Below the pieces are notes generated by a model that was not told the origin of the DNA, did not search any database, and saw nothing but the letters and a program-made list of their open reading frames with translations. The position numbers were made by a program, and so were the translations under genes. A DNA stretch of 40,625 nt from a virus (lineage: Duplodnaviria > Heunggongvirae > Uroviricota > Caudoviricetes): IMG/VR virus record IMGVR_UViG_2541047915_000011. One strand, 5' to 3'. This document shows, piece after piece, positions 1 to 31,820 of this stretch; the first letter of the stretch is position 1, and each line of letters opens with the position of its first letter.

Positions 1-2148
1 TTACACCATACTGTTAACCTGGCCGGGTAATTCGCTAGCTGGAATACGAAAGGTATACCAGGCATAACGACAGCGTTTCCACAGGCTGGAGAAATGGAGA
101 TGATAAAGGCAATCTGCAATAATTTCGTTATCTGGATATAAAGACTCGGCAAAATGTGTCCAGCGCGCACTGAGTTTCATGTTAAACAGTTTTTCATCTT
201 CTTTGTTACCATACAGGCGCGACAAAGTAATCATTGCTTCGAGCGTACCTTTATTCGCTTCTTCTTGTACCTGTTGGAGGTGCAAATGAGCAAGTGAGAG
301 TTCTTTCACCTCAAAGATATTAAGTAAAAAAAGCCCCCATGCTTTTTCATGTCCAGCTTCATGAGCCAGAAATAAATTGTCAAGGAGATTTTTTTCATAA
401 ATAGCCCGTGTTTCTTTAGAAATTTCTTGTTTATTTAGTGCCTGGTAGCAGATAGCAATGCTAAAATAAATATTTTGTAGATCTTGTTGATGTTCGCTAT
501 AACCATAATTTTTTACCAGTGGATAAGATACCGAGCTATGGAAATTTAGGTCATCTTGAAGTATTTTAAGTGCCCGTCGAAAATACTCCAAAGCTGTAGA
601 TGGTTCATAAGGTAATTTTGTATTGTCTTCCTTATCCAAATATTCAAGAGCAACTAAATTTAATGCGGCAGGAATATTTCTTTGCTTACCAATTGTCGCA
701 AGCGGAATGAAATAATCAGAAAGGTCAAACCAACTCAAATCTTTTATTGCCGACCGCCAATTATGATTGTATTTAATGTCACTAGTTTTTTCCAGCCAAG
801 CATCGCCCTGCCCTTCATCTTTTTCAAAACCCAAAATACCCTCTCGCTGGAAAAACCCCCTATAAATAACAGGTGTAGCATAAGTTGTATTCTGTGAATT
901 TTGGCAGATAAAATTATATATCCAGAATGAATCTGGATAATAACTTAATGCAAATTTTATCGCGTACGCAGTGTAATAATTATTGAGCTTCATGTCTTCC
1001 ATCACCGCTCGCTGTATACAGCACCACAACTTATCGTGATCGTTCTGCTTGTTATAGCAGGCAAGTAACCACTCTAGGGCATTATGGCGACATTCCTGAA
1101 ATTGTGCGTACTGAGCAATATTCTCTGCTAAGTCGATTGCATATTGTTGCTCCTCGGGCGCAATGTCCTCAATGCTGACATCTCGGTAATCATCCCACCA
1201 AAGTAAGAGATCCATATAGTCATGTTCTTCGGTAGATAAGTGCTTACAGGTTACTGAATCCAGCAATTCGGAAATTTCTTTATGCGACCCTCCCCAGCGT
1301 GGCATTCGAAATGGTATATATTCAACAAAAGGATAAAAAGTGTGAGGAAAAATAGTCAGGCAAACAGAAAGCCAATATTTTTGCCCACCATCATCATCAT
1401 ACTCAGGAAGTATATTGGGGCGAGGCAAAACGGGGCATATTGCATGCTCAAACGAAAGTCCGGAATACGCCATCAACGCTTCCACTTCTTGCGGGGAGCG
1501 GCGGTGATAATTTTTCAGTGCGATCATTAATGGTATTCCTGCGACACTATCACCGTTAAGGTGTGCCGCCAGCCAGGCTGGCTGACCAAATACTTTTGAG
1601 TTGGTGCTGGTAAGTAATGCAGCCATCCATTGTCGTGGGTCACAATCAATTGCTTTAAGTGTAGCGATGACCATTTGTTCATTACATGCACCAGCACAAA
1701 GCCACATTGCATGTGTGGTATCATTTGCCCAGCCATAACTGCGATATAACCATGCACGGTGATTCCAGTATTGTGCTTCGGCAAGCCAGGCATGTGTAGA
1801 ATGAGGTCTTGCTTGCTGCCAGGTTTTAATGAGTCTTAAACCTTCTGTTCCGGCATCAACTAGCGTGTTCATATCATAAAAATAGTTGCACATTTGGGTC
1901 CAGGATAAAAAATAGCGCTTTTCAGCCTGACGAGAAGTGAAACTCTCCTGTAATACCTGGTTATAAATTTCATCTAGTTCCTGATAACGTTTTTCTTGTA
2001 ACATATAAGGAATATTTGCGATTTGCCATTTTCTCTCAAGAGTATTAAGTGGCATTTTTTGGTCACACATCTTTTGCATTGCACTGAGTAAACGAGCATC
2101 CTGTTCCATAGATATCCTTTTAATTAGGTTCAAAAATTTTAAATTCAT
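1..2148 (-). CDS. Hypothetical large protein (715 aa by longest ORF; an internal ATG at about 2109 with an AAGGA Shine-Dalgarno would give about 702 aa). Trp-rich N-terminal region, TPR/Sel1-like helical repeats in the C-terminal third. Distal gene of a 3-gene operon.
   Basis: Complete ORF with stop at 1-3. Overlaps or abuts the upstream 238-aa gene. AT-rich relative to yegQ. No family assigned from sequence alone. Confidence 0.6.
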   Translation of the reverse strand: MNLKFLNLIKRISMEQDARLLSAMQKMCDQKMPLNTLERKWQIANIPYMLQEKRYQELDEIYNQVLQESFTSRQAEKRYFLSWTQMCNYFYDMNTLVDAGTEGLRLIKTWQQARPHSTHAWLAEAQYWNHRAWLYRSYGWANDTTHAMWLCAGACNEQMVIATLKAIDCDPRQWMAALLTSTNSKVFGQPAWLAAHLNGDSVAGIPLMIALKNYHRRSPQEVEALMAYSGLSFEHAICPVLPRPNILPEYDDDGGQKYWLSVCLTIFPHTFYPFVEYIPFRMPRWGGSHKEISELLDSVTCKHLSTEEHDYMDLLLWWDDYRDVSIEDIAPEEQQYAIDLAENIAQYAQFQECRHNALEWLLACYNKQNDHDKLWCCIQRAVMEDMKLNNYYTAYAIKFALSYYPDSFWIYNFICQNSQNTTYATPVIYRGFFQREGILGFEKDEGQGDAWLEKTSDIKYNHNWRSAIKDLSWFDLSDYFIPLATIGKQRNIPAALNLVALEYLDKEDNTKLPYEPSTALEYFRRALKILQDDLNFHSSVSYPLVKNYGYSEHQQDLQNIYFSIAICYQALNKQEISKETRAIYEKNLLDNLFLAHEAGHEKAWGLFLLNIFEVKELSLAHLHLQQVQEEANKGTLEAMITLSRLYGNKEDEKLFNMKLSARWTHFAESLYPDNEIIADCLYHLHFSSLWKRCRYAWYTFRIPASELPGQVNSMV

Positions 2149-2836
2149 TCCACGGCAATTTTTTCCAGTTACTGGATGGATCTTTCAACCATGCAGTGAC
2201 TTCCTTTAAATCACGGTTCGCAGTGGCGACGGGGGTATCGTATATCATTAACCATTTTTGTCGGGCGCGAACATAAGCACTGGCATAATCTTCCCATGAA
2301 GCGAAACAATCTTGTGCTCTTTGAGCATTCAGTAATAACACTATCCAGGCCTGGTTTTCATCGCACCAGCCTAAACCGGCGATGCAACGAGTTAAAAAAG
2401 CAGTGCGCATACAGTCAAACGCCAGCCCATCCAGAACCTGGCCTTGTGCTGCCAGTTGTTCGTAAAAATCATGTGGAGAATTACCAAGCCCTGTAGCCCA
2501 GCGCTGTAATATAACGCCAATTTGTTGACGGAAATCTTCGTTGCTTTGGTAAGTTTCTGTTCCTAGCTCTTGTTTAACCTGTAGTGCAAGTTGTTGACGC
2601 TTATCATCAGTCAACTTTAAATCTAACGTGAAGCCATTTACTGACAGTCCATTACGACGAGCAACTATATCACCAATTGCTAATGCCCACTTACGTCTCT
2701 TTGTTGCTCGTCTTTTGTCCTTGATTAGATCCTTTTCTTTTTCTTTAGCAATAAAAGCATCGATTTGTGGTTTGTTTTTTTTGTATCTATAGATAAAAAT
2801 AAATATTGCGACCAGGAGAACAATGATAAGACTCAT
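2120..2836 (-). CDS. Hypothetical protein, 238 aa, with N-terminal hydrophobic signal-anchor/TM segment (LIIVLLVAIFIFIY) followed by a basic stretch
   Basis: ORF track. Start overlaps the stop of the upstream 404-aa gene (TAATG-type overlap at 2834-2838), suggesting translational coupling. Confidence 0.6.
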   Translation of the reverse strand: MSLIIVLLVAIFIFIYRYKKNKPQIDAFIAKEKEKDLIKDKRRATKRRKWALAIGDIVARRNGLSVNGFTLDLKLTDDKRQQLALQVKQELGTETYQSNEDFRQQIGVILQRWATGLGNSPHDFYEQLAAQGQVLDGLAFDCMRTAFLTRCIAGLGWCDENQAWIVLLLNAQRAQDCFASWEDYASAYVRARQKWLMIYDTPVATANRDLKEVTAWLKDPSSNWKKLPWNEFKIFEPN

Positions 2837-4050
2837 TATTTTTCAACCTCTGACAGGGGTAAGTAATGAGATGTCTGTAATGTCAAACTCTCTATCTCAA
2901 AGGAAATGTTGCTGATATTTTGACCTGCAAATTGCGGATGCCACTCAGCGCCAGGGAATAACATTTCCGCAGAAGTAGCAACTATAGGGTCAATAGCATT
3001 AAGATAATGTAACTTATCAGGTGCGCTGTGTAACAGTAACCACTGCAACTCCACTGAAGGATTTGTAAAATGTTCTAATAAATGAAAGTTATTATGTAGT
3101 ACGCTTAGTAAAAAACTGGTTTCGTATACTTCCGTTGCATATTTCCACCCCTGATATTCAGGTGTATTTTCATAAACAATACCCATACCTTCACAATCAC
3201 TATGTCGAACTGCTTGTGGTGATAATAGTTGCAAAAGAGACAAAACATCGTCCGCATATTTTTTAACTGGATGACGATTTTGCTTACCTTTTATTTGATC
3301 AATTTCAAGTGAATCACCAACAACATTGAGAGCAATAGTAACATGAGGAATATTATTATTATCACGCAAACTGAATAACCGTAATTTATGTTGCTCAATT
3401 TGATTTGCATAATACTCACCATAACCACCGGTAAGATTTTTTCGATCATCAAACTGGCCTACGCAATGTTGCATATGCCATGATTCATAAGCCATTTCAC
3501 GACGAAGGTTCGAATGACTGGCATCAAACTCAACAATTTTTCCGTCTGGCACATCAAGTATTGACTTTACAGTATTTTGTTCACTCGGCTGCCACCCTTT
3601 CTCGCGTCGTTGAAGCATCTTTTCATGCTCTTCTTCACGCATTCTGAACGCAACGTAGCAGGTTATGCGCTGTAGTTTTGATTCCAGACGGGTACCACAT
3701 TTCCTGGAAAGAAATTCCACCAACTCCCGTTCTTTGGTTAATATTTGTTGATGATCGGTTTCGATATAATAAAGTGTCGCAGTTGATACTGAGGCAGTAT
3801 TAAACTTCGATACCAGCCATTCCGGGATTACATCATCATTTTTATTAAACAGTGAATATTCTGCAAGCGAGTTAATTTGTTGCACCATTGGAAAGTCACT
3901 AATTAGCCATCGATAAAAATGGTTGAGTAACCATTTTTGGATGGTCTCATTATCCTGGCGAAACAGACTTCTTTGCAAAATTGCTGTTTTTACTTCCGGG
4001 GCATTAATTACATCCCTTGCATTATAATTCTGGTGAATATTTCCAGTCAT
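2836..4050 (-). CDS. Hypothetical protein, 404 aa, first gene of the 3-gene operon
   Basis: ORF track. Preceded by a 487-bp AT-rich intergenic region (4051-4537). Contains an HCVGQF...GGYGEYY segment. No confident family call. Confidence 0.6.
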   Translation of the reverse strand: MTGNIHQNYNARDVINAPEVKTAILQRSLFRQDNETIQKWLLNHFYRWLISDFPMVQQINSLAEYSLFNKNDDVIPEWLVSKFNTASVSTATLYYIETDHQQILTKERELVEFLSRKCGTRLESKLQRITCYVAFRMREEEHEKMLQRREKGWQPSEQNTVKSILDVPDGKIVEFDASHSNLRREMAYESWHMQHCVGQFDDRKNLTGGYGEYYANQIEQHKLRLFSLRDNNNIPHVTIALNVVGDSLEIDQIKGKQNRHPVKKYADDVLSLLQLLSPQAVRHSDCEGMGIVYENTPEYQGWKYATEVYETSFLLSVLHNNFHLLEHFTNPSVELQWLLLHSAPDKLHYLNAIDPIVATSAEMLFPGAEWHPQFAGQNISNISFEIESLTLQTSHYLPLSEVEK

Positions 4051-4537: not shown

Positions 4538-5899
4538 ATGTTTAAACCGGAACTCCTTTCCCCGGCGGGAACGCTGAAAAATATGCGTTACGCTTTCGCT
4601 TATGGCGCAGATGCTGTTTATGCGGGCCAGCCGCGTTACTCCCTGCGTGTACGCAACAACGAATTCAACCACGAAAATCTTCAGCTCGGCATCAATGAAG
4701 CCCACGCGCTGGGGAAAAAGTTTTATGTCGTGGTCAACATTGCACCGCACAACGCCAAGCTGAAAACCTTTATCCGTGACCTGAAACCGGTGGTGGAAAT
4801 GGGGCCGGATGCGCTGATTATGTCCGATCCAGGGCTGATTATGCTGGTGCGTGAACACTTCCCGGAAATGCCAATCCACCTCTCGGTACAGGCTAACGCC
4901 GTAAACTGGGCGACGGTGAAATTCTGGCAGCAAATGGGTCTGACCCGCGTGATCCTCTCTCGCGAACTGTCACTGGAAGAGATTGAAGAGATCCGCAATC
5001 AGGTGCCGGATATGGAGATCGAAATCTTCGTTCACGGCGCGCTGTGCATGGCCTACTCCGGTCGCTGCCTGCTCTCTGGCTATATCAACAAGCGCGACCC
5101 GAACCAGGGCACCTGCACCAACGCCTGCCGCTGGGAGTACAATGTCCAGGAAGGGAAAGAAGATGACGTCGGCAACATCGTACACAAGTACGAGCCGATT
5201 CCGGTGCAAAATGTTGAGCCGACGCTGGGTATCGGCGCGCCAACCGACAAAGTGTTTATGATCGAAGAAGCCCAGCGTCCGGGCGAGTATATGACCGCGT
5301 TTGAAGATGAGCACGGCACTTACATCATGAACTCGAAAGATCTGCGCGCCATCGCCCATGTTGAACGCCTGACCAAAATGGGCGTGCATTCGCTGAAAAT
5401 CGAAGGCCGTACCAAATCTTTCTACTATTGCGCACGCACCGCGCAGGTTTACCGTAAAGCTATCGATGACGCCGCTGCGGGCAAACCGTTCGATACCAGC
5501 CTGCTGGAAACGCTGGAAGGTCTGGCGCATCGTGGCTATACCGAAGGTTTCCTGCGTCGTCATACCCACGACGATTATCAGAACTACGAATACGGTTATT
5601 CGGTTTCTGACCGCCAGCAGTTTGTTGGTGAGTTTACCGGTGAGCGCAAGGGGGAGCTCGCGGCGGTAGCGGTGAAAAATAAATTCTCCGTTGGCGACAG
5701 CCTTGAGCTGATGACGCCGCAAGGCAACATTAACTTTACCCTTGAGCATATGGAAAACGCCAAAGGTGAAGCGATGCCGGTCGCACCAGGCGATGGTTAT
5801 ACTGTGTGGCTCCCGGTGCCGCAGGATCTTGAGCTAAATTACGCGCTGCTGATGCGTAATTTCTCCGGGGAAACCACGCGTAACCCCCACGGTAAGTGA
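4538..5899 (+). CDS. yegQ: Peptidase U32 family protein YegQ (also called TrhP)
   Basis: 453-aa ORF whose sequence matches my recollection of E. coli YegQ over its length. Sits immediately upstream of CyaR as in E. coli. Confidence 0.9.
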   Translation: MFKPELLSPAGTLKNMRYAFAYGADAVYAGQPRYSLRVRNNEFNHENLQLGINEAHALGKKFYVVVNIAPHNAKLKTFIRDLKPVVEMGPDALIMSDPGLIMLVREHFPEMPIHLSVQANAVNWATVKFWQQMGLTRVILSRELSLEEIEEIRNQVPDMEIEIFVHGALCMAYSGRCLLSGYINKRDPNQGTCTNACRWEYNVQEGKEDDVGNIVHKYEPIPVQNVEPTLGIGAPTDKVFMIEEAQRPGEYMTAFEDEHGTYIMNSKDLRAIAHVERLTKMGVHSLKIEGRTKSFYYCARTAQVYRKAIDDAAAGKPFDTSLLETLEGLAHRGYTEGFLRRHTHDDYQNYEYGYSVSDRQQFVGEFTGERKGELAAVAVKNKFSVGDSLELMTPQGNINFTLEHMENAKGEAMPVAPGDGYTVWLPVPQDLELNYALLMRNFSGETTRNPHGK

Positions 5900-5939: not shown

Positions 5940-5983
5940 ACCGATCACATACAGCTGCATTTATTAAGGTTATCATCCGTTTC
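5940..5983 (+). promoter_or_regulatory. Putative cyaR promoter region (CRP-dependent in E. coli)
   Basis: TATCAT -10-like hexamer at about 5971-5976, about 7 nt before the sRNA 5' end, and a TCACA half-site upstream. CyaR is known to be CRP-activated. Position inferred, not verified. Confidence 0.3.
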
Positions 5984-6070
5984 GCTGAAAAACATAACCC
6001 ATAAAATGCTAGCTGTACCAGGAACCACCTCCTTAGCCTGTGTAATCTCCCTTACACGGGCTTATTTTTT
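5984..6070 (+). ncRNA. cyaR: CyaR (RyeE) Hfq-dependent small RNA
   Basis: Sequence GCTGAAAAACATAACCC...ACCTCCTTAGCC...CCCTTACACGGGCTTATTTTTT matches my recollection of E. coli CyaR, including the CCUCCU seed and an intrinsic terminator. Lies between yegQ and ogr as in E. coli K-12. Confidence 0.7.
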
Positions 6071-12774: not shown

Positions 12775-12865
12775 CCGTTTAACTCCGTGGTTAATGGGTG
12801 CAACTATTTTCTGTTGTGCAGAGCATGAGACGCTATTTGACCTAGCTGGTTAGTGGATGAAACAA

Positions 12866-12897
12866 CAGATAAAGAAAAGGCGGGCAATTCGCCCGCC
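12866..12897 (-). terminator. Intrinsic terminator downstream of the Z/fun-locus gene, upstream of FI
   Basis: GGCGGGC / GCCCGCC stem with AATTC loop. On the minus strand it is followed by TTTTCTTTATCTG. Confidence 0.45.
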
Positions 12898-13103
12898 TGT
12901 CCTGATTTGAACTCACTCATTTTCCGACTGACAATTTACATAGCCCAAAAGTTATCAAATCTGACGGTCTGCTTTGAACAAGAAGCGGACATTTGCCTGT
13001 CAGGGTATATGCCGCTCTGCGGTTATTATCCAGAATCAATAATTCATCTGAGTTGGATTACATATAAAACATAGTTACCCCATGAATAACCATTAGCAGA
13101 TTA

Positions 13104-13697
13104 TCAATTATGTAAATCTTTTGTTTTATGTTCTTTGGCGTGTTGTGACAACAAATGGCTATAGCGTTTAAGCAAAATATTAGAAAGATTAAGCTCATTC
13201 ATGAAGTGTTCTTCTAATAAGTAACCATCAATATCAACTTTAATATCATTACCACTTTTCATCTTCTGTAACGTAGATTTTACACGCTCCAGCAGGATGC
13301 TTTGCTCATGGTAATAGTCCATAAGAAGAGTAACATCCTCTTTATCAAGCTTACTTAATTCGCTGAAGTAGGATTTAAACACTTTATCAGTCTGGTTTAA
13401 TGCAATCTGTAAGCGAGGCCCCCCTAATGATTTGACATTAATGGCAAAAGGCTCGCCAACAAAATGCTCCGAATTTTCGTCAAAGCCAATATATCTCGTT
13501 TTATCAAGAAAAGTGAGAGCGCGATGGTTATTAGCGATTTCATATGCAAACATTGTTCTGATACTGTCCCTCTCAGCCTCCATGCTTATATCATCACGAT
13601 GATTTGTATAAAATATATTTCCAACAAAGAGAACCATAGCAAGAATCACTGAACTTGCCTCCCAGTTAATATTTTTTAATCGTCGCTTAGTAAACAT
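13104..13697 (-). CDS. Z/fun-locus protein, 197 aa, N-terminal signal-anchor/TM helix, function unknown
   Basis: AT-rich ORF in the variable slot between G and FI. AAGGTG Shine-Dalgarno about 5 nt before the ATG. Hydrophobic segment SSVILAMVLFVGNIFY near the N-terminus. Confidence 0.7.
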   Translation of the reverse strand: MFTKRRLKNINWEASSVILAMVLFVGNIFYTNHRDDISMEAERDSIRTMFAYEIANNHRALTFLDKTRYIGFDENSEHFVGEPFAINVKSLGGPRLQIALNQTDKVFKSYFSELSKLDKEDVTLLMDYYHEQSILLERVKSTLQKMKSGNDIKVDIDGYLLEEHFMNELNLSNILLKRYSHLLSQHAKEHKTKDLHN

Positions 13698-13918
13698 ACC
13701 GCACCTTAATTATCAAAAATATTCCTTCAGTGTTATCTGGTTAGCCTAAACCAAGTCATTAAAGTCTGCAGGATATCATATACATAAAATGTATTGATTA
13801 GAATTTGCACTAATAAAATAATGCTTTACTAAAATCTACTCCAGACACAGAGCGGCCTGTCAGATTAGGCTTTACTCTGTGCCATAGATATGTTTGCTCA
13901 CTCCAGAGATCATACAAC

Positions 13919-18655: not shown

Positions 18656-19003
18656 TCAACTCACAGGGATGGTTAACGAAAGTGGCTGGCCGGTGTCGTT
18701 GTGCTGGCCGGTTAACGTGACCGTCATTCGCCCGTCAAAACTGCGCGCCGTGGTGACAGATGACAGCGTGACGCGGGGTTCCCATTTCAGCACCGCCATG
18801 TAACAGGCGACCTTAATCTGCAACTCAAGCGCCGGGGTCTGCGGCTGGTCAATCATTGACGCCAGCAACGAGCCGTAATCACGACGCATCACCCGTGAGC
18901 CGACCGGTGTGCGCAGGATATCGCCGATACTCTGGCTGATATGCTCAAGGTCAGTGACCGTCAGGCCATCACTGCGATTCATTCCGAGATAACGCGCTGT
19001 CAT
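18656..19003 (-). CDS. W: Baseplate protein gpW
   Basis: 115 aa, P2 W size and position. Confidence 0.85.
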   Translation of the reverse strand: MTARYLGMNRSDGLTVTDLEHISQSIGDILRTPVGSRVMRRDYGSLLASMIDQPQTPALELQIKVACYMAVLKWEPRVTLSSVTTARSFDGRMTVTLTGQHNDTGQPLSLTIPVS

Positions 19004-19635
19004 AGAGGGCTCCCGGTTGTGCCGCCGCTGTCGCCGGGGTGTTTATGGGTATGCAGTACCTTACCGTTTGATGAGAGTTCACCGCCGGTGTGTTCAATGT
19101 TGCCGCGCATCGTCCCGCCCTTCTGCACTTCCAGCGTGCCGGTAATCAGCCTGTTGGTGCAAACCACCTCCGGTGTGTCCAGGGTGACGCGGGTTGATGC
19201 TTTCACCATGACCACCGGCACCGTGGCAGTAACAGAATCAGAAGCCGTCACGCTGGCCGTTTTAATTCCGCTTACCGTGAGTGCACTGGTTTCGGGTTCA
19301 TACTCAATCACCGCCCCGTCAGGGAAACGGATATGCAGGGCATCCGCCGACGCAGACGGCGCGGGGTTATCGCCGGAATAAATCCCCGGCAGAACGAACG
19401 CCGTGTCGAGTTCACCGCCCACAGCCAGAATCAGCACCTGTTCCCCCACGGAAGGTGCCCACCATGTGCGCGAACGTCCGGCACGATGGGTCAGCCACTG
19501 AAGCCAGTCAGTGCACATGCCACCGGTCTGCACACGGCAGCGACCGGCTTTAAGGTTGGTTTCGACGACAAGGCCGGTACGAATCATGTTGCGCAGTGCG
19601 CGCGCGAGTTCCTGAATATTTGCGAGAGTGTTCAT
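19000..19635 (-). CDS. V: Baseplate spike protein gpV (211 aa)
   Basis: MNTLANIQELARALRNMIRTGLVV... matches P2 V from the internal ATG at 19633-19635. The ORF-track start at 19653 is a TTG extension. Confidence 0.85.
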   Translation of the reverse strand: MNTLANIQELARALRNMIRTGLVVETNLKAGRCRVQTGGMCTDWLQWLTHRAGRSRTWWAPSVGEQVLILAVGGELDTAFVLPGIYSGDNPAPSASADALHIRFPDGAVIEYEPETSALTVSGIKTASVTASDSVTATVPVVMVKASTRVTLDTPEVVCTNRLITGTLEVQKGGTMRGNIEHTGGELSSNGKVLHTHKHPGDSGGTTGSPL

Positions 19636-19718
19636 GCGTGTGAGATTGCACAATATATAAAAGTTATGCTATCTGGATTCATTTGTAGAACGACCATACA
19701 ACATTCGAGGAGAGCGTA

Positions 19719-20504
19719 ATGTTCAGTGATAATGTGACTAATGCGTGGTGGTTTATCTCTTTGTATCTATTTTTATTAATAGCATTAACATTTATTACCT
19801 TTGGTAAAAGTAATCTTATGAGGTTTATTGCACATCATTTCAATTTTGAGTATTCAGACAGAAAGTTAAAAATGCTCGACAAAAAATGGCGCGACATTCA
19901 ACTATTTAAAATAATTAACGGAATCAATGTATCAGGCATCGAAGATGTGAGAATGATACAGCAGGGGCTGATTGATGGAAAACTAAAAACATCGTATTTT
20001 TTTCTTACTCGCTTCTGGGGTGACATAACAAAACCACCACACATAATTAAAACAATAATTGTAATTCTGTCCAGCATTATTTATATTCTCTTCGCATGTT
20101 ATATACACAACAAACAATCCGCTATAGTAAGAGATGCCATAGGCATACCATATAAAAATATGATGTACTATGTTTATAGTGACAAAGTTCTTTTATCCTT
20201 CAACAATAAAACAGTTGAATTCAATAAAACTTATAGCCATGCCGATTGCAAGAGGCTACGAAACGTATTTATAAAAGACACACTTCCTGAGATCGCCTGC
20301 AATAAGCTCTTACAGCTAAACGAGGAGGACTCGGAATGGTTAAGTCAGGAGATTAAAGATAATAACAGCCAAAAAAAAGCATTATTAATAATATCCCTCA
20401 TCTATTTCATTTCAGGTCTGGTTATATTCCTGTCATATACAAAATTCCTTTACGCCAATAAGAAGGTTGTAGAATACAAAGCATCAAATAAAAATCACTC
20501 ATAA
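19719..20504 (+). CDS. orf30-locus polytopic membrane protein, 261 aa, function unknown
   Basis: AT-rich ORF on the opposite strand between V and S, the slot of P2 orf30. GAGGAG Shine-Dalgarno at about 19707-19712. At least three hydrophobic TM-like segments (N-terminal, central, C-terminal). Confidence 0.7.
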   Translation: MFSDNVTNAWWFISLYLFLLIALTFITFGKSNLMRFIAHHFNFEYSDRKLKMLDKKWRDIQLFKIINGINVSGIEDVRMIQQGLIDGKLKTSYFFLTRFWGDITKPPHIIKTIIVILSSIIYILFACYIHNKQSAIVRDAIGIPYKNMMYYVYSDKVLLSFNNKTVEFNKTYSHADCKRLRNVFIKDTLPEIACNKLLQLNEEDSEWLSQEIKDNNSQKKALLIISLIYFISGLVIFLSYTKFLYANKKVVEYKASNKNHS

Positions 20505-20575
20505 ACCTCTAAACATTGAGCGACCAGCATGGCCGCTCAATGTTTAATTGCGCATCAGCCTCTGCCTGGATAAAA

Positions 20576-21028
20576 CTAACGCTCAAGGTGAGCCAGGATA
20601 ATCTCTTCAATCATCTGCACATCCTCACCGGTAAAGCCGAGCAGAGGACGCGCCGGATAATCAATTTTCTTACCGTCTTTCCGGGTTTCTTCCGACAGAC
20701 CGAACTGATGCACACTGGCGATTTTCGGCGACTTCCCGCCGTAAAATTCCATTGATGCCTGTTCCGGGCTGGCGCGGATATGCAAAAAACGACTGGTGAT
20801 AAGTTTCGCAAACATTTTTCGCTTAACACGACCGGTCTTTTTTCTGGCGCTCTGCTGCTGGCGTGGCGCGTAGGGTGTGCCGTCCGGGGCTTTCTGTGCC
20901 ATCACCCGACGCTGCTGACTCTGCCGCAGACGCTTCGCCAGCTCTGCACTCAGCCGCCGACGCCCTGACGGTGACAGCGATTCAATAAGTCCCGCCAGCC
21001 GGTCTTCAAAACGCTTAAACTCATTCAT
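20576..21028 (-). CDS. S: Tail completion protein gpS
   Basis: 150 aa, P2 S size and position. Confidence 0.85.
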   Translation of the reverse strand: MNEFKRFEDRLAGLIESLSPSGRRRLSAELAKRLRQSQQRRVMAQKAPDGTPYAPRQQQSARKKTGRVKRKMFAKLITSRFLHIRASPEQASMEFYGGKSPKIASVHQFGLSEETRKDGKKIDYPARPLLGFTGEDVQMIEEIILAHLER

Positions 21029-29867: not shown

Positions 29868-30485
29868 TTAACTCTCAACCTCAATAAAAATATTTTTGGG
29901 CCCATTACTAATCGATATACCGATTTCATCCAAAACAGCCATCATTTTTCTCTGATGAGTTTTATATTTATAGTCTTTATTTTCCTCTGTAATATGTGCA
30001 TTGGCTTCCTCAATAACACATTTGATTCTAGATATTATTTCTAGATAATCTCTCGAAACAGATATATCACCGCCTTGCGCTTCAGGGAACATAACCCTAT
30101 ACCATCTAAAAAAATTAACTTTCTCTGGATAGATGCTACTTCTTTTAGTTAACTCAGCACTTGCAAATTCTCTAAACATCGTCAGATGACTAGTGTAATT
30201 ACTATTATTATTATTTTTAACTCCAGCGTTATATGTCATCAAAGCAATCATAACACCAAAAACGGTAACAAAAGTTGTTATAAGCCATCCAAACGCCTGA
30301 AAATACATTACTATACCAGATGTTTTTTCCGCAAAAAATTTTAAGCACTGGCTATCGAAGCATATATCACGCTCATATAGCTTTTCATTCTGAATAGTTT
30401 CAAAAAGAGAAATTAGCGAAAAAATCAAAAAAAGAGCTGACGACACACCGACAATATATTTGAGAAGTCTAATATTTGCATTCAT
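29868..30485 (-). CDS. Small 2-TM membrane protein (205 aa), candidate effector partner of the adjacent reverse transcriptase
   Basis: ATG at 30483-30485 overlaps the RT stop (ATGA overlap). Hydrophobic helices at about residues 10-28 and 58-84. Strongly AT-rich. Confidence 0.7.
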   Translation of the reverse strand: MNANIRLLKYIVGVSSALFLIFSLISLFETIQNEKLYERDICFDSQCLKFFAEKTSGIVMYFQAFGWLITTFVTVFGVMIALMTYNAGVKNNNNSNYTSHLTMFREFASAELTKRSSIYPEKVNFFRWYRVMFPEAQGGDISVSRDYLEIISRIKCVIEEANAHITEENKDYKYKTHQRKMMAVLDEIGISISNGPKNIFIEVES

Positions 30486-31672
30486 AATGGTTTTAAAGAT
30501 GCCAATCTAGATTTAAAACACTCCAGTTTTTCTTTAAATGATTCAGAGCGAGTAAGAATAATCATCTTATATCTCGTCAAATCATATTTTCTTTTATACC
30601 AATGTTTATTTTGATTACCTTTCGAATACGACAACTCTAAACTTTTTATAGCTGCATCAATCACAGCAACATCTCTTTTAGATGGCATCGGTTTTATTGC
30701 CTGCAACTGTTTCTTGAATGATTCATATTTTTCATGCCCAACACGGCCAAGCTTATTCACTCTCCCCATACATCTATTGAATTCTTTTCTGTATGCAACA
30801 CTTGTTTTTGTGTTATTTTTTGCCGCCAGTAATTTCAAATTATGTATAGATGCCCTGATTCTTTTGACTTCATCGGATGGTAGTCGAGGTGAGTCATAGT
30901 CAACTCTTAAACCATGTACTTTTATAGGTTCAGATGAACAGTGAAATATTTTAGTTTTGTGCTTATTTATCGGCAAGTCATGCTCAGAAAGCATCCTCTC
31001 TATATGGCTTTGCATTTGAGAAAAATCATAATTACTTATTTTAGATGACACGGTAATATCATCTACCAAACGCGTATAAACAAGTCCTTTCCTCTGCGCA
31101 CGTCTTACCACATCCCCTTCAACAGCGAATAAACACAAAGTTGCTATATAGCTTGATGTTAAGGCCCCCTGTACGACAAAATCATCCTTAGTACATATAT
31201 CCACCAAGTATTCAAGAGCCTCATCCTTAATATGCAATATCTCCTCAAACACGCTCCTAACCAGATCTCTATGGATATTATCGAAAAAATTACTTATATC
31301 CACCTTGAGAACTGTTTTTGCTCCACAATGAGCCTTTGCACATGAAACATAGTCACGTTTGACATTAGAATTTAACACATCATTTTTACTGGGAACTGAA
31401 CCAAACAAAAATGAAGGAAAAACAACCAATTCCTTAAAGATACGTTTATTAATTCTACTCTGTAATAATCTCATTTTAGGATGCAGGGAGTAGACAATCC
31501 GTTTGCTTCCGTCAATTTTGGGAATTTCTTTTAGAGTATATTTCTCATCTAATGGTAATTCTGCAATAGCTTTAAGCTCTTCAACAGAAATCGATAAAGC
31601 CTTTGACAACTTTTCAAGTGTTGTGATAGGAGCATTGGATTTGCTGTATGGTTTAAATTTATCCATAAACAT
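30482..31672 (-). CDS. Reverse transcriptase, retron-like (UG/Abi-type not excluded). About 396 aa from the ATG at 31672; the ORF track extends to a TTG at 31756.
   Basis: RT motifs in order: IPKIDGSKRIV, CAKAH, VLKVDISNFFDNI, QGALTSSYIATL, LVYTRLVDDITV (catalytic DD), INKHKTKIF, IKVHGLRV, then a basic C-terminal domain of about 135 aa. Start is ambiguous; the upstream extension overlaps a structured inverted-repeat region. Confidence 0.8.
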   Translation of the reverse strand: MFMDKFKPYSKSNAPITTLEKLSKALSISVEELKAIAELPLDEKYTLKEIPKIDGSKRIVYSLHPKMRLLQSRINKRIFKELVVFPSFLFGSVPSKNDVLNSNVKRDYVSCAKAHCGAKTVLKVDISNFFDNIHRDLVRSVFEEILHIKDEALEYLVDICTKDDFVVQGALTSSYIATLCLFAVEGDVVRRAQRKGLVYTRLVDDITVSSKISNYDFSQMQSHIERMLSEHDLPINKHKTKIFHCSSEPIKVHGLRVDYDSPRLPSDEVKRIRASIHNLKLLAAKNNTKTSVAYRKEFNRCMGRVNKLGRVGHEKYESFKKQLQAIKPMPSKRDVAVIDAAIKSLELSYSKGNQNKHWYKRKYDLTRYKMIILTRSESFKEKLECFKSRLASLKPL

Positions 31673-31689
31673 ACCATTCAAATTCAAAG

Positions 31690-31820
31690 TTACGTACGGT
31701 CTTCCCATACTCAAGGGTGGAACAGCAGAGATGCTTACATCAACAATTGTCAGCAACAGCCTCTGCTATCTTTCGACCGTACGTAATGTCGTCGGCTACG
31801 GCACCATCGTAGTTGACGAC
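31690..31820 (-). repeat. Nested inverted repeats and hairpins in the RT leader (candidate structured RNA element)
   Basis: 12-bp perfect inverted repeat TTACGTACGGTC (31690-31701 and 31775-31786) enclosing a 7-bp inner repeat AGCAGAG/CTCTGCT. Adjacent hairpin at 31788-31820 with 13-bp imperfect stem GTCGTCGGCTACG / CGTAGTTGACGAC. Confidence 0.5.

Follow-up and report, generated by a model that had tools for sequence, protein, structure and literature searches.

The DNA analyzed here, IMG/VR record IMGVR_UViG_2541047915_000011 (referred to, at its full length of 40,625 nt, as the window, to whose positions all unlabelled coordinates refer), represents an E. coli prophage of the P2 type, 2 kb of which are 100% identical to strain AH21I008. 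The element under study is its copy of orf30, located between the baseplate spike gene V and the tail completion gene S (Table 1), beyond which the genes R, lysC/B/A, K and Y follow in the P2 order. Within the late block (∼6.4–26.8 kb), which is otherwise uniformly read from the minus strand, it is the sole plus-strand open reading frame (ORF) that is not a shadow of another gene. The GC content of this ORF is 32.3% (35/27/35% by codon position) as compared to 55–60% in the neighbouring genes, with a GC trough of 31–36% spanning ∼19650–20550. The profile of 19-residue Kyte-Doolittle means revealed exactly three hydrophobic segments in the encoded protein (∼residues 8–28, 106–130 and 221–243, with means of 2.1–2.6). 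An earlier note on this DNA had described an AT-rich 261-codon ORF at the P2 orf30 locus, preceded by a strong Shine-Dalgarno sequence, lying on the plus strand of a minus-strand late region and coding for a polytopic membrane protein with at least three hydrophobic helices. All of these points were reproduced, the start and stop codons and the GAGGAG element precisely, and the membrane character as a prediction.

The comparison with P2 itself extended the positional match to the level of the gene. The encoded protein has the same 261-residue length as P2 Orf30 (AAD03281.1, from AF063097) and shares with it 84.3% amino acid (tblastn) and 92.7% nucleotide identity, the 41 amino acid differences being concentrated in the first and second transmembrane (TM) segments. 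The two copies have in common the position between V and S, the opposite orientation, the divergent control region of the late promoter PV (95% identical) and the downstream hairpin terminator (100% identical). The window copy represents a different allele, closest to that of Peduovirus P24A7b (98.9% identical). The protein also matches PHROG family phrog_2407 (function unknown) over residues 1–261 of 261 (E = 1.1e-143). Judged by sequence, the window ORF is thus a true orthologue of P2 orf30 rather than a mere occupant of the same slot. This match names the gene without explaining what it does, as the GenBank entry for P2 Orf30 carries only the remark "nonessential" and a published study (PMC3091744) counts orf30, with its function given as unknown, among the three regions in which P2-like phages carry horizontally acquired genes. 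In other words, the gene is already catalogued (as P2 orf30 and as phrog_2407), and the window contributes a new allele to a family that has been known without being characterised.

Table 1. The orf30 locus of the window: positions of genes, regulatory elements and predicted protein segments
Feature	Position	Strand	Basis and remarks
gpV, baseplate spike gene (left flank)	19000–19635	−	Divergent from orf30; ATG at 19635 agrees with the P2 V start
AT-rich orf30 cassette	19636–20575		940 bp; fills the whole V–S intergenic space
Divergent control region	19636–19718		83 bp between the V and orf30 start codons; homology to P2
Ogr activator-binding site of late promoter PV	19677–19704		P2 annotation transferred by alignment
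Shine-Dalgarno sequence GAGGAG	19707–19712	+	6 nt before ATG; direct sequence reading
orf30 orthologue, coding sequence	19719–20504	+	ATG start; 261 aa plus stop, 786 nt
N-terminal tail	aa 1–7	+	7 residues before TM1; no Lys/Arg; predicted periplasmic
TM1, aa 8–28	19740–19802	+	Hydropathy; most variable part of the protein
Predicted cytoplasmic helical domain, aa 29–105	19803–20033	+	Most conserved motifs; AlphaFold2 pLDDT 85–94 here
TM2, aa 106–130	20034–20108	+	Hydropathy, AlphaFold2 model
Predicted periplasmic alpha/beta domain, aa 131–220	20109–20378	+	AlphaFold2 secondary structure; segment aligning to the BL21 DUF6216 family
Cys177	20247–20249	+	Family-invariant Cys pair
Cys194	20298–20300	+	Family-invariant Cys pair; motif AC.(K/Y)L
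TM3, aa 221–243	20379–20447	+	Hydropathy, AlphaFold2 model; part of a long helix
Basic C-terminal tail, aa 244–261	20448–20501	+	Predicted cytoplasmic; N247 and K254 conserved
Strong hairpin	20510–20546		Putative rho-independent O-operon terminator in P2; P2 annotation and fold energy
gpS, tail completion gene (right flank)	20576–21028	−	Convergent on orf30

The population data indicate that this is a real gene. The IMG/VR set of orf30 comprised 80 loci with 72 full-length alleles (54 distinct at the nucleotide and 46 at the protein level, with a lowest pairwise identity of 74% among the latter), and in all 76 viral loci with enough flanking sequence it is V and S that flank the gene. The eight phage alleles compared first are all intact and equal in length, and the same holds for 71 of the 72 full-length IMG/VR alleles, which are intact at 786 nt; the only disrupted allele (L089, 2501–3282) has a 1-nt deletion with a premature stop at about codon 222. 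The ratio of nonsynonymous to synonymous substitution rates (dN/dS, Nei-Gojobori) among the eight alleles was 0.47 for orf30, as compared to 0.13 for V, 0.06 for S, 0.07 for W and 0.15 for R. The larger set of 54 nucleotide alleles gave 0.46 for the whole gene, with lower values for the regions encoding residues 29–105 (0.33) and 131–220 (0.24) and higher ones for the N-terminal tail plus TM1 (1.2 over 19719–19802) and TM3 (1.5 over 20379–20447). Hence, the two soluble domains are constrained and the membrane helices drift or diversify. Overall, orf30 is a real gene encoding a selected protein that is under purifying selection, and this conservation at the protein level rules out both a spurious ORF and a mere AT-rich spacer or terminator.

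The topology prediction that the earlier note had called for was run on the family as a whole (27 members) and returned three TM helices with the N-terminus outside and the C-terminus inside. Lysine and arginine are completely absent from the N-terminal tail across the 27 members, and the 15 residues that follow TM1 contain on average 2.4 Lys plus Arg versus 0.04 Asp plus Glu. A stretch of the same length after TM3 contains on average 3.4 Lys plus Arg, and the flanks of the TM2–TM3 loop are balanced in charge. This loop has exactly two cysteines in 27 out of 27 members (the other segments average 0–0.7), and both of them (positions 177 and 194) are invariant in the 54 alleles, so that they probably form a disulfide. 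The charge bias taken together with the cysteine pattern suggests an N-out, C-in protein with residues 29–105 in the cytoplasm and a disulfide-containing domain (residues 131–220) in the periplasm; the three-pass topology and the localisation to the inner membrane are predictions drawn from the sequences. An AlphaFold2 model built on the same 27-sequence alignment (predicted local distance difference test score, pLDDT, 85; predicted template modelling score, pTM, 0.75) has TM1 extending into a cytoplasmic helix, followed by a small helical domain and TM2. The periplasmic part of the model includes a four-stranded sheet (residues 141–173) and then two short helices, with both cysteines in this part. 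A 59-residue helix (residues 202–260) begins in the periplasmic domain, crosses the membrane as TM3 and ends in the cytoplasm.

A word-indexed search of 5.8 billion proteins returned five clusters, four of which were allele clusters of orf30 itself and the fifth a protein from Enterobacter (41% identity). The exhaustive profile search of 1.84 billion representatives recovered 44 clusters, of which ∼25 are full-length (250–270 residues) at 17–32% identity. The named sources all belong to Enterobacterales (Enterobacter, Pectobacterium, Yersinia, Sodalis, Cronobacter and Pantoea). Their alignment retains the three TM segments together with the motifs G29, D.QLF(K/R)..NG(I/V)N, D76, G87 and (W/F)G.(I/V)(T/G), which all belong to the predicted cytoplasmic domain and are the best conserved, the cysteine pair (within ..DC.. 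and AC.(K/Y)L), (E/W)L..(A/E)I, N247 and K254. Genes of this family are always of 30–35% GC, irrespective of the GC content of their neighbours.

Genome context analysis showed that the family is syntenic in the S–V slot of P2-like prophages across Enterobacterales, an arrangement newly recognised here. Homologues 23–32% identical to Orf30 occupy the slot in at least six other enterobacterial genera, on the opposite strand, as in the P2-like prophages of Yersinia, Sodalis, Enterobacteriaceae ATCC 29904 and an Enterobacter metagenome-assembled genome. Between genera the flanking proteins are better conserved (63–82% identity for V and 45–49% for S) than the Orf30-like protein, with only 23–32%. 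In the window, P2, Yersinia and Sodalis the gene is the only one between V and S. The homologue of Pectobacterium (L027, 6800–8440) is accompanied by an ORF6N-domain protein and two small ORFs, and that of Cronobacter (L029, 3965–4899) by a 180-residue ORF and a DUF7480 protein, none of these additional genes being conserved. A two-gene system, or an abortive-infection effector with its sensor as an operon partner, is thereby ruled out, as no partner is conserved. Likewise, no toxin gene was found adjacent to orf30 in any of the genomic contexts examined.

Two kinds of context depart from this synteny. The gene of Pantoea sp. S-LA4 (L016, 6001–6777, plus strand) is an exception located outside the S–V slot, where it overlaps the int stop codon by 8 nt and ends a tightly packed CI-YebY-Int operon at the prophage–chromosome junction. 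In two Enterobacter chromosomes a gene of the orf30 family stands alone as an AT-rich islet, away from any phage genes.

A possible link to an existing family is provided by the P2-like remnant of E. coli BL21(DE3). The gene found there directly between S and V, in the opposite orientation, encodes a 268-residue protein annotated as "DUF6216 family protein" (WP_000115390.1; 33% GC), and again it is the only gene in the slot. The Pfam model of this family (PF19723, gathering threshold 27.3 bits) is weakly matched by five of the 27 Orf30-family members (best E = 8.7e-7, all of them below threshold), and the window protein gave no match to it even at E≤1. A direct BLASTP comparison of Orf30 with the BL21 protein gave E = 0.15, that is, no pairwise similarity; an alignment of the two families by hhalign gave 73% probability (E = 3e-5) over 107 columns, confined to the periplasmic Cys-pair domain and TM3. 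The BL21 protein resembles Orf30 in slot, orientation, the three hydrophobic segments and the charge bias, and its family has the same invariant cysteine pair in the TM2–TM3 loop. On the other hand, the BL21 type lacks the cytoplasmic domain with the QLF..NGIN motif and has a longer conserved cytoplasmic tail at the C-terminus. The shared slot, orientation, size, topology and cysteine pair speak for a common origin, and on this basis we regard Orf30 as a probable remote relative of DUF6216 rather than a formal member.

The DUF6216 relative adds two observations on retention and control. Genes of the BL21 type are intact in heavily eroded P2 remnants of E. coli B, Klebsiella aerogenes and Serratia rubidaea (L019–L023; L009, 25115–25921), where they lie beside insertion sequence (IS) elements or are left with only fragments of Ogr, S and R; in K. 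aerogenes and S. rubidaea these remnants adjoin rpoD-mug. The BL21 gene has also been reported as a chromatin immunoprecipitation (ChIP) peak of H-NS that is upregulated in hns/stpA mutants (bioRxiv 10.64898/2026.09.05.749240), i.e. as H-NS-bound and silenced, a measurement that concerns the BL21 relative and not orf30.

The presence of orf30 is polymorphic. Among 5426 complete E. coli genomes, the V–S region was found in 1585, and orf30 was present in 460 of these (29%, or 8.5% of all genomes), the rest being mostly empty. In a comparison with one such empty prophage (L008), the homology breaks off precisely at the start codon of V and sets in again precisely at the stop codon of S, the 940-bp cassette taking the place of a 66-bp spacer (L008, 837–902). 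Since the cassette is found in only 460 of 1585 genomes with a near-identical V–S region, and since the slot may be empty or hold other cargo, the gene is accessory and not structural. With regard to origin, the earlier note had repeated the long-standing view of orf30 as a foreign insertion. The presence or absence of the cassette among near-identical prophages agrees with that view; a unique insertion in P2 is ruled out by the synteny across genera, where divergent homologues hold the same slot. Overall, orf30 is a lineage-wide accessory gene that is evolving quickly or being swapped as a cassette.

Other contents of the slot are rare. In E. coli 600468 (L006, 1220–1962, plus strand) it holds two small opposite-strand ORFs of 66 and 126 residues, and in E. 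coli UPEC69 (L007, 1214–1954, minus strand) a 245-residue same-strand ORF with weak HNH-like matches. The S–V slot thus behaves as a minor cargo hotspot. Recent surveys of P2 hotspots, which name old/tin, Z/fun and a tail–cI locus, do not list it. Prophages with and without orf30 also have entirely different sequences upstream of V, where P2 places the late promoter PV, the spacer of the orf30-less prophages (L008, 837–902) being different right up to the V ATG. In L008 this spacer contains a GC-rich hairpin (GCCGCCGG..CCGGCGGC) located 12 nt from the V start.

The geometry of the control region constrains the expression of orf30. The two intergenic regions are 95–100% identical among the eight alleles and thereby more conserved than orf30, as would fit promoter and terminator roles. 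The end of the transferred Ogr site falls 3 nt before the Shine-Dalgarno sequence of orf30 and 14 nt ahead of its ATG. Activation from this site at about −55 would place the transcription start inside the ORF, which rules out Ogr-activated late expression: orf30 is not a late gene of this kind. Its promoter would have to overlap the PV core promoter or lie inside V, and in that case it would probably be occluded once PV is active late in infection. At the other end, the fold energy of the hairpin (20510–20546) is −21.3 kcal/mol on the plus and −26.3 kcal/mol on the minus strand (z-scores −5.8 and −6.2), with weak T-runs on both strands, and it can serve both of the convergent transcripts, orf30 and S. 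The search of the locus against Rfam yielded only sub-threshold hairpin matches.

Several assignments were considered and rejected in the family searches. The matches were sub-threshold, driven by TM segments or at chance level, and comprised DUF6535 (19.8 bits against a cut-off of 23.9), an antiporter subunit and, in PADLOC, MTase_II at chance level (E = 0.016). A role as holin, antiholin or spanin is rejected as well, since the gene lies outside the Y-K-lysA-lysB-lysC block, is oriented against it and has no match to a Pfam holin or spanin family.

Membrane proteins of known exclusion or abortive-infection function include P22 SieA, T4 Imm, HK97 gp15 and lambda RexB. Like these small proteins, Orf30 would be a phage-encoded component of the inner membrane that is dispensable for virion production and exerts its effect in the envelope with no enzymatic domain; those of them that reside in prophages are also expressed from there. 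Unlike these, with which it has no sequence or fold similarity, Orf30 is larger and has two sizeable (predicted) soluble domains on opposite sides of the membrane. The other natural comparison is with old, tin and Z/fun of P2 itself. They share with orf30 the AT-richness, the dispensability and a patchy occurrence in P2-like phages, and are likewise viewed as having been acquired horizontally. In contrast to orf30, these P2 loci are established as defence hotspots, have proven exclusion phenotypes and carry a wide variety of cargo, whereas the S–V slot mostly contains one protein family or nothing. The genes old, tin and fun have all been described as phage-exclusion genes.

Taken together, these observations lead us to propose that Orf30 is an H-NS-gated inner-membrane or envelope protein, expressed in the lysogen and acting against other phages; we infer both the expression and the phenotype, and assign to this reading a probability of roughly 0.45, somewhat short of even. 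According to this proposal, orf30 would be a non-essential accessory ("moron") gene for a three-pass inner-membrane protein. It would be transcribed separately from the late operons, and antisense to them, from a weak H-NS-repressible promoter overlapping the silent PV, and its product would be made in the lysogen and not as a part of virion production. Acting alone at the envelope, Orf30 might stop other phages in either of two ways: by blocking the entry of their genomes across the inner membrane (superinfection exclusion), or by means of a periplasmic domain that would sense an envelope perturbation and shut the cell down (abortive infection). Selection at the level of the host or lysogen is suggested by the position in the int operon of Pantoea, by the retention in degraded prophages and by the phage-free islets of Enterobacter. 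We favour action between phages because the other AT-rich morons of P2 exclude phages and because the family is tightly linked to one slot of one phage lineage.

A number of observations weigh against this proposal. No promoter with a sigma-70 match of at least 9/12 reading into orf30 was found here or in six homologous loci, an absence that also fits a weak or silenced promoter, and the H-NS silencing of the BL21 relative suggests, by analogy, a very low expression in the laboratory. No significant match to Orf30 was found in Pfam or NCBIfam or among the defence models of PADLOC-DB v2, the BL21 DUF6216 relative likewise giving no PADLOC match. The Foldseek searches against BFVD and PDB returned nothing at E≤0.001 (the top matches were claudin/TARP-like with TM-scores of ∼0.15). 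The elevated dN/dS of TM1 and TM3, which could be read as a sign of an arms race, may simply reflect interchangeable hydrophobic residues. The literature searched for a phenotype of orf30 or DUF6216 reported none. In addition, in a published functional selection against T4, lambda-vir and T7, which drew on 71 strains of E. coli with 63 P2 portal proteins between them, P2-like prophages contributed seven systems, all of them from the two known hotspots (four and three, respectively), the presence of orf30 in the library not having been checked. Finally, strong self-exclusion by Orf30 is excluded, as vir mutants of P2 are able to grow on lysogens of P2.

Some of the same evidence would equally suit a membrane protein of lysogenic conversion with a benefit to the host unrelated to phages, such as immunity to a bacteriocin, tailocin or contact-dependent toxin, tolerance of envelope stress, or a niche or virulence trait. 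The retention in degraded prophages, the phage-free islets, the place in a lysogeny operon of Pantoea, the AT-richness and the H-NS control all agree with this explanation, as does the absence of a tie to any known defence family, and a three-pass inner-membrane protein with a periplasmic domain resembles, in general terms, the immunity proteins for pore formers. We nevertheless consider it unlikely, given that the family and structure searches returned neither an immunity family for colicins or bacteriocins nor a virulence factor as a homologue, that no toxin gene is found nearby, and that the gene is bound to one slot of a single phage lineage whose other morons exclude phages. An accessory role in the lytic cycle, for example in the timing of lysis, in blocking re-infection or in conditioning the inner membrane for the passage of tail or DNA, appears even less probable. 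It would account for the position in the middle of the late region, beside the lysis cassette and the genes for tail completion and the baseplate, for the persistence next to V across genera and for a control region in common with PV. It is difficult to reconcile with the orientation opposite to all late operons, with a geometry that excludes activation from the Ogr site, with the absence of the gene from ∼70% of near-identical prophages and its annotation as non-essential in P2, and with homologues that occur outside phages, beside int at the edge of one prophage, or in remnants unable to make virions.

At the far end of the range, orf30 might be a selfish or nearly neutral passenger, e.g. 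a toxic membrane protein silenced by H-NS and maintained by hitch-hiking and by recombination between the conserved V and S flanks while serving neither phage nor host. Its AT-richness, the silencing of the BL21 relative, the weak promoter, the relaxed constraint (dN/dS of 0.46 versus 0.06–0.15 in the neighbours) and the one frameshifted allele would be expected of such a passenger. We consider this very improbable in view of the 71 intact alleles out of 72, the clearly purifying selection on the soluble domains (0.24–0.33), the persistence of the motifs and the cysteine pair at 20% identity across genera, and the survival of intact genes in decaying prophages.

Returning to the proposed action against other phages, it can be taken one step further, albeit doubtfully. 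Orf30 and DUF6216 might together constitute an unrecognised, Peduoviridae-wide family of envelope immunity proteins, each encoded by a single gene, with a new fold, an H-NS-gated control and a position divergent from V. In such a protein the disulfide-stabilised periplasmic domain could detect or block an incoming tail tip or DNA conduit, and the cytoplasmic domain could transmit or execute the block. If so, P2-like phages would have in the S–V slot a third defence locus that has been overlooked so far, and one with a new fold.

P2 is a model temperate phage, and old, tin and fun have each founded a class of phage-exclusion systems, with orf30 remaining the one without a function. The finding would not surprise a P2 specialist. 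What is new is the conservation of the slot, the orthology, the predicted N-out/C-in topology with a periplasmic disulfide domain, the probable remote tie to DUF6216 and the evidence of selection in populations. These turn an old annotation footnote into a cheap and well-defined experimental target, for which the predicted topology and the cysteine pair offer sites for mutation. Even if orf30 is not a defence gene, its product would remain of note as a membrane protein that is abundant among the prophages of gut E. coli.

The two established P2 hotspots are occupied in the window as well. The old/tin hotspot carries a type IV retron (29868–31756, minus strand) in an island of 32–37% GC, consisting of a reverse transcriptase (30482–31756; PADLOC RT_IV, E = 8e-177; Pfam RVT_1) and a two-TM effector (29868–30485; 2TM_IV, E = 2e-75); the msr/msd noncoding RNA was not located, Rfam giving no match at the gathering score. 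The Z/fun slot contains a 197-residue ORF (13104–13697, minus strand; ∼35% GC) within an island at ∼12800–13800. It has no match in Pfam or PADLOC and may represent uncharacterised cargo of a hotspot already known for P2 defence.

Outside the prophage, the host flank (1–4050, minus strand; 35–45% GC) includes three ORFs with DUF4034, DUF1266 and weak PcfJ-like domains, with no PADLOC match, the first of these ORFs running off the end of the window. Just outside the left end of the late block are a gene for a U32 peptidase (yegQ-like; 4538–5899, plus strand) and the small RNA CyaR/RyeE (5982–6067, plus strand; Rfam, 100.7 bits), and the prophage therefore appears to adjoin yegQ-cyaR.

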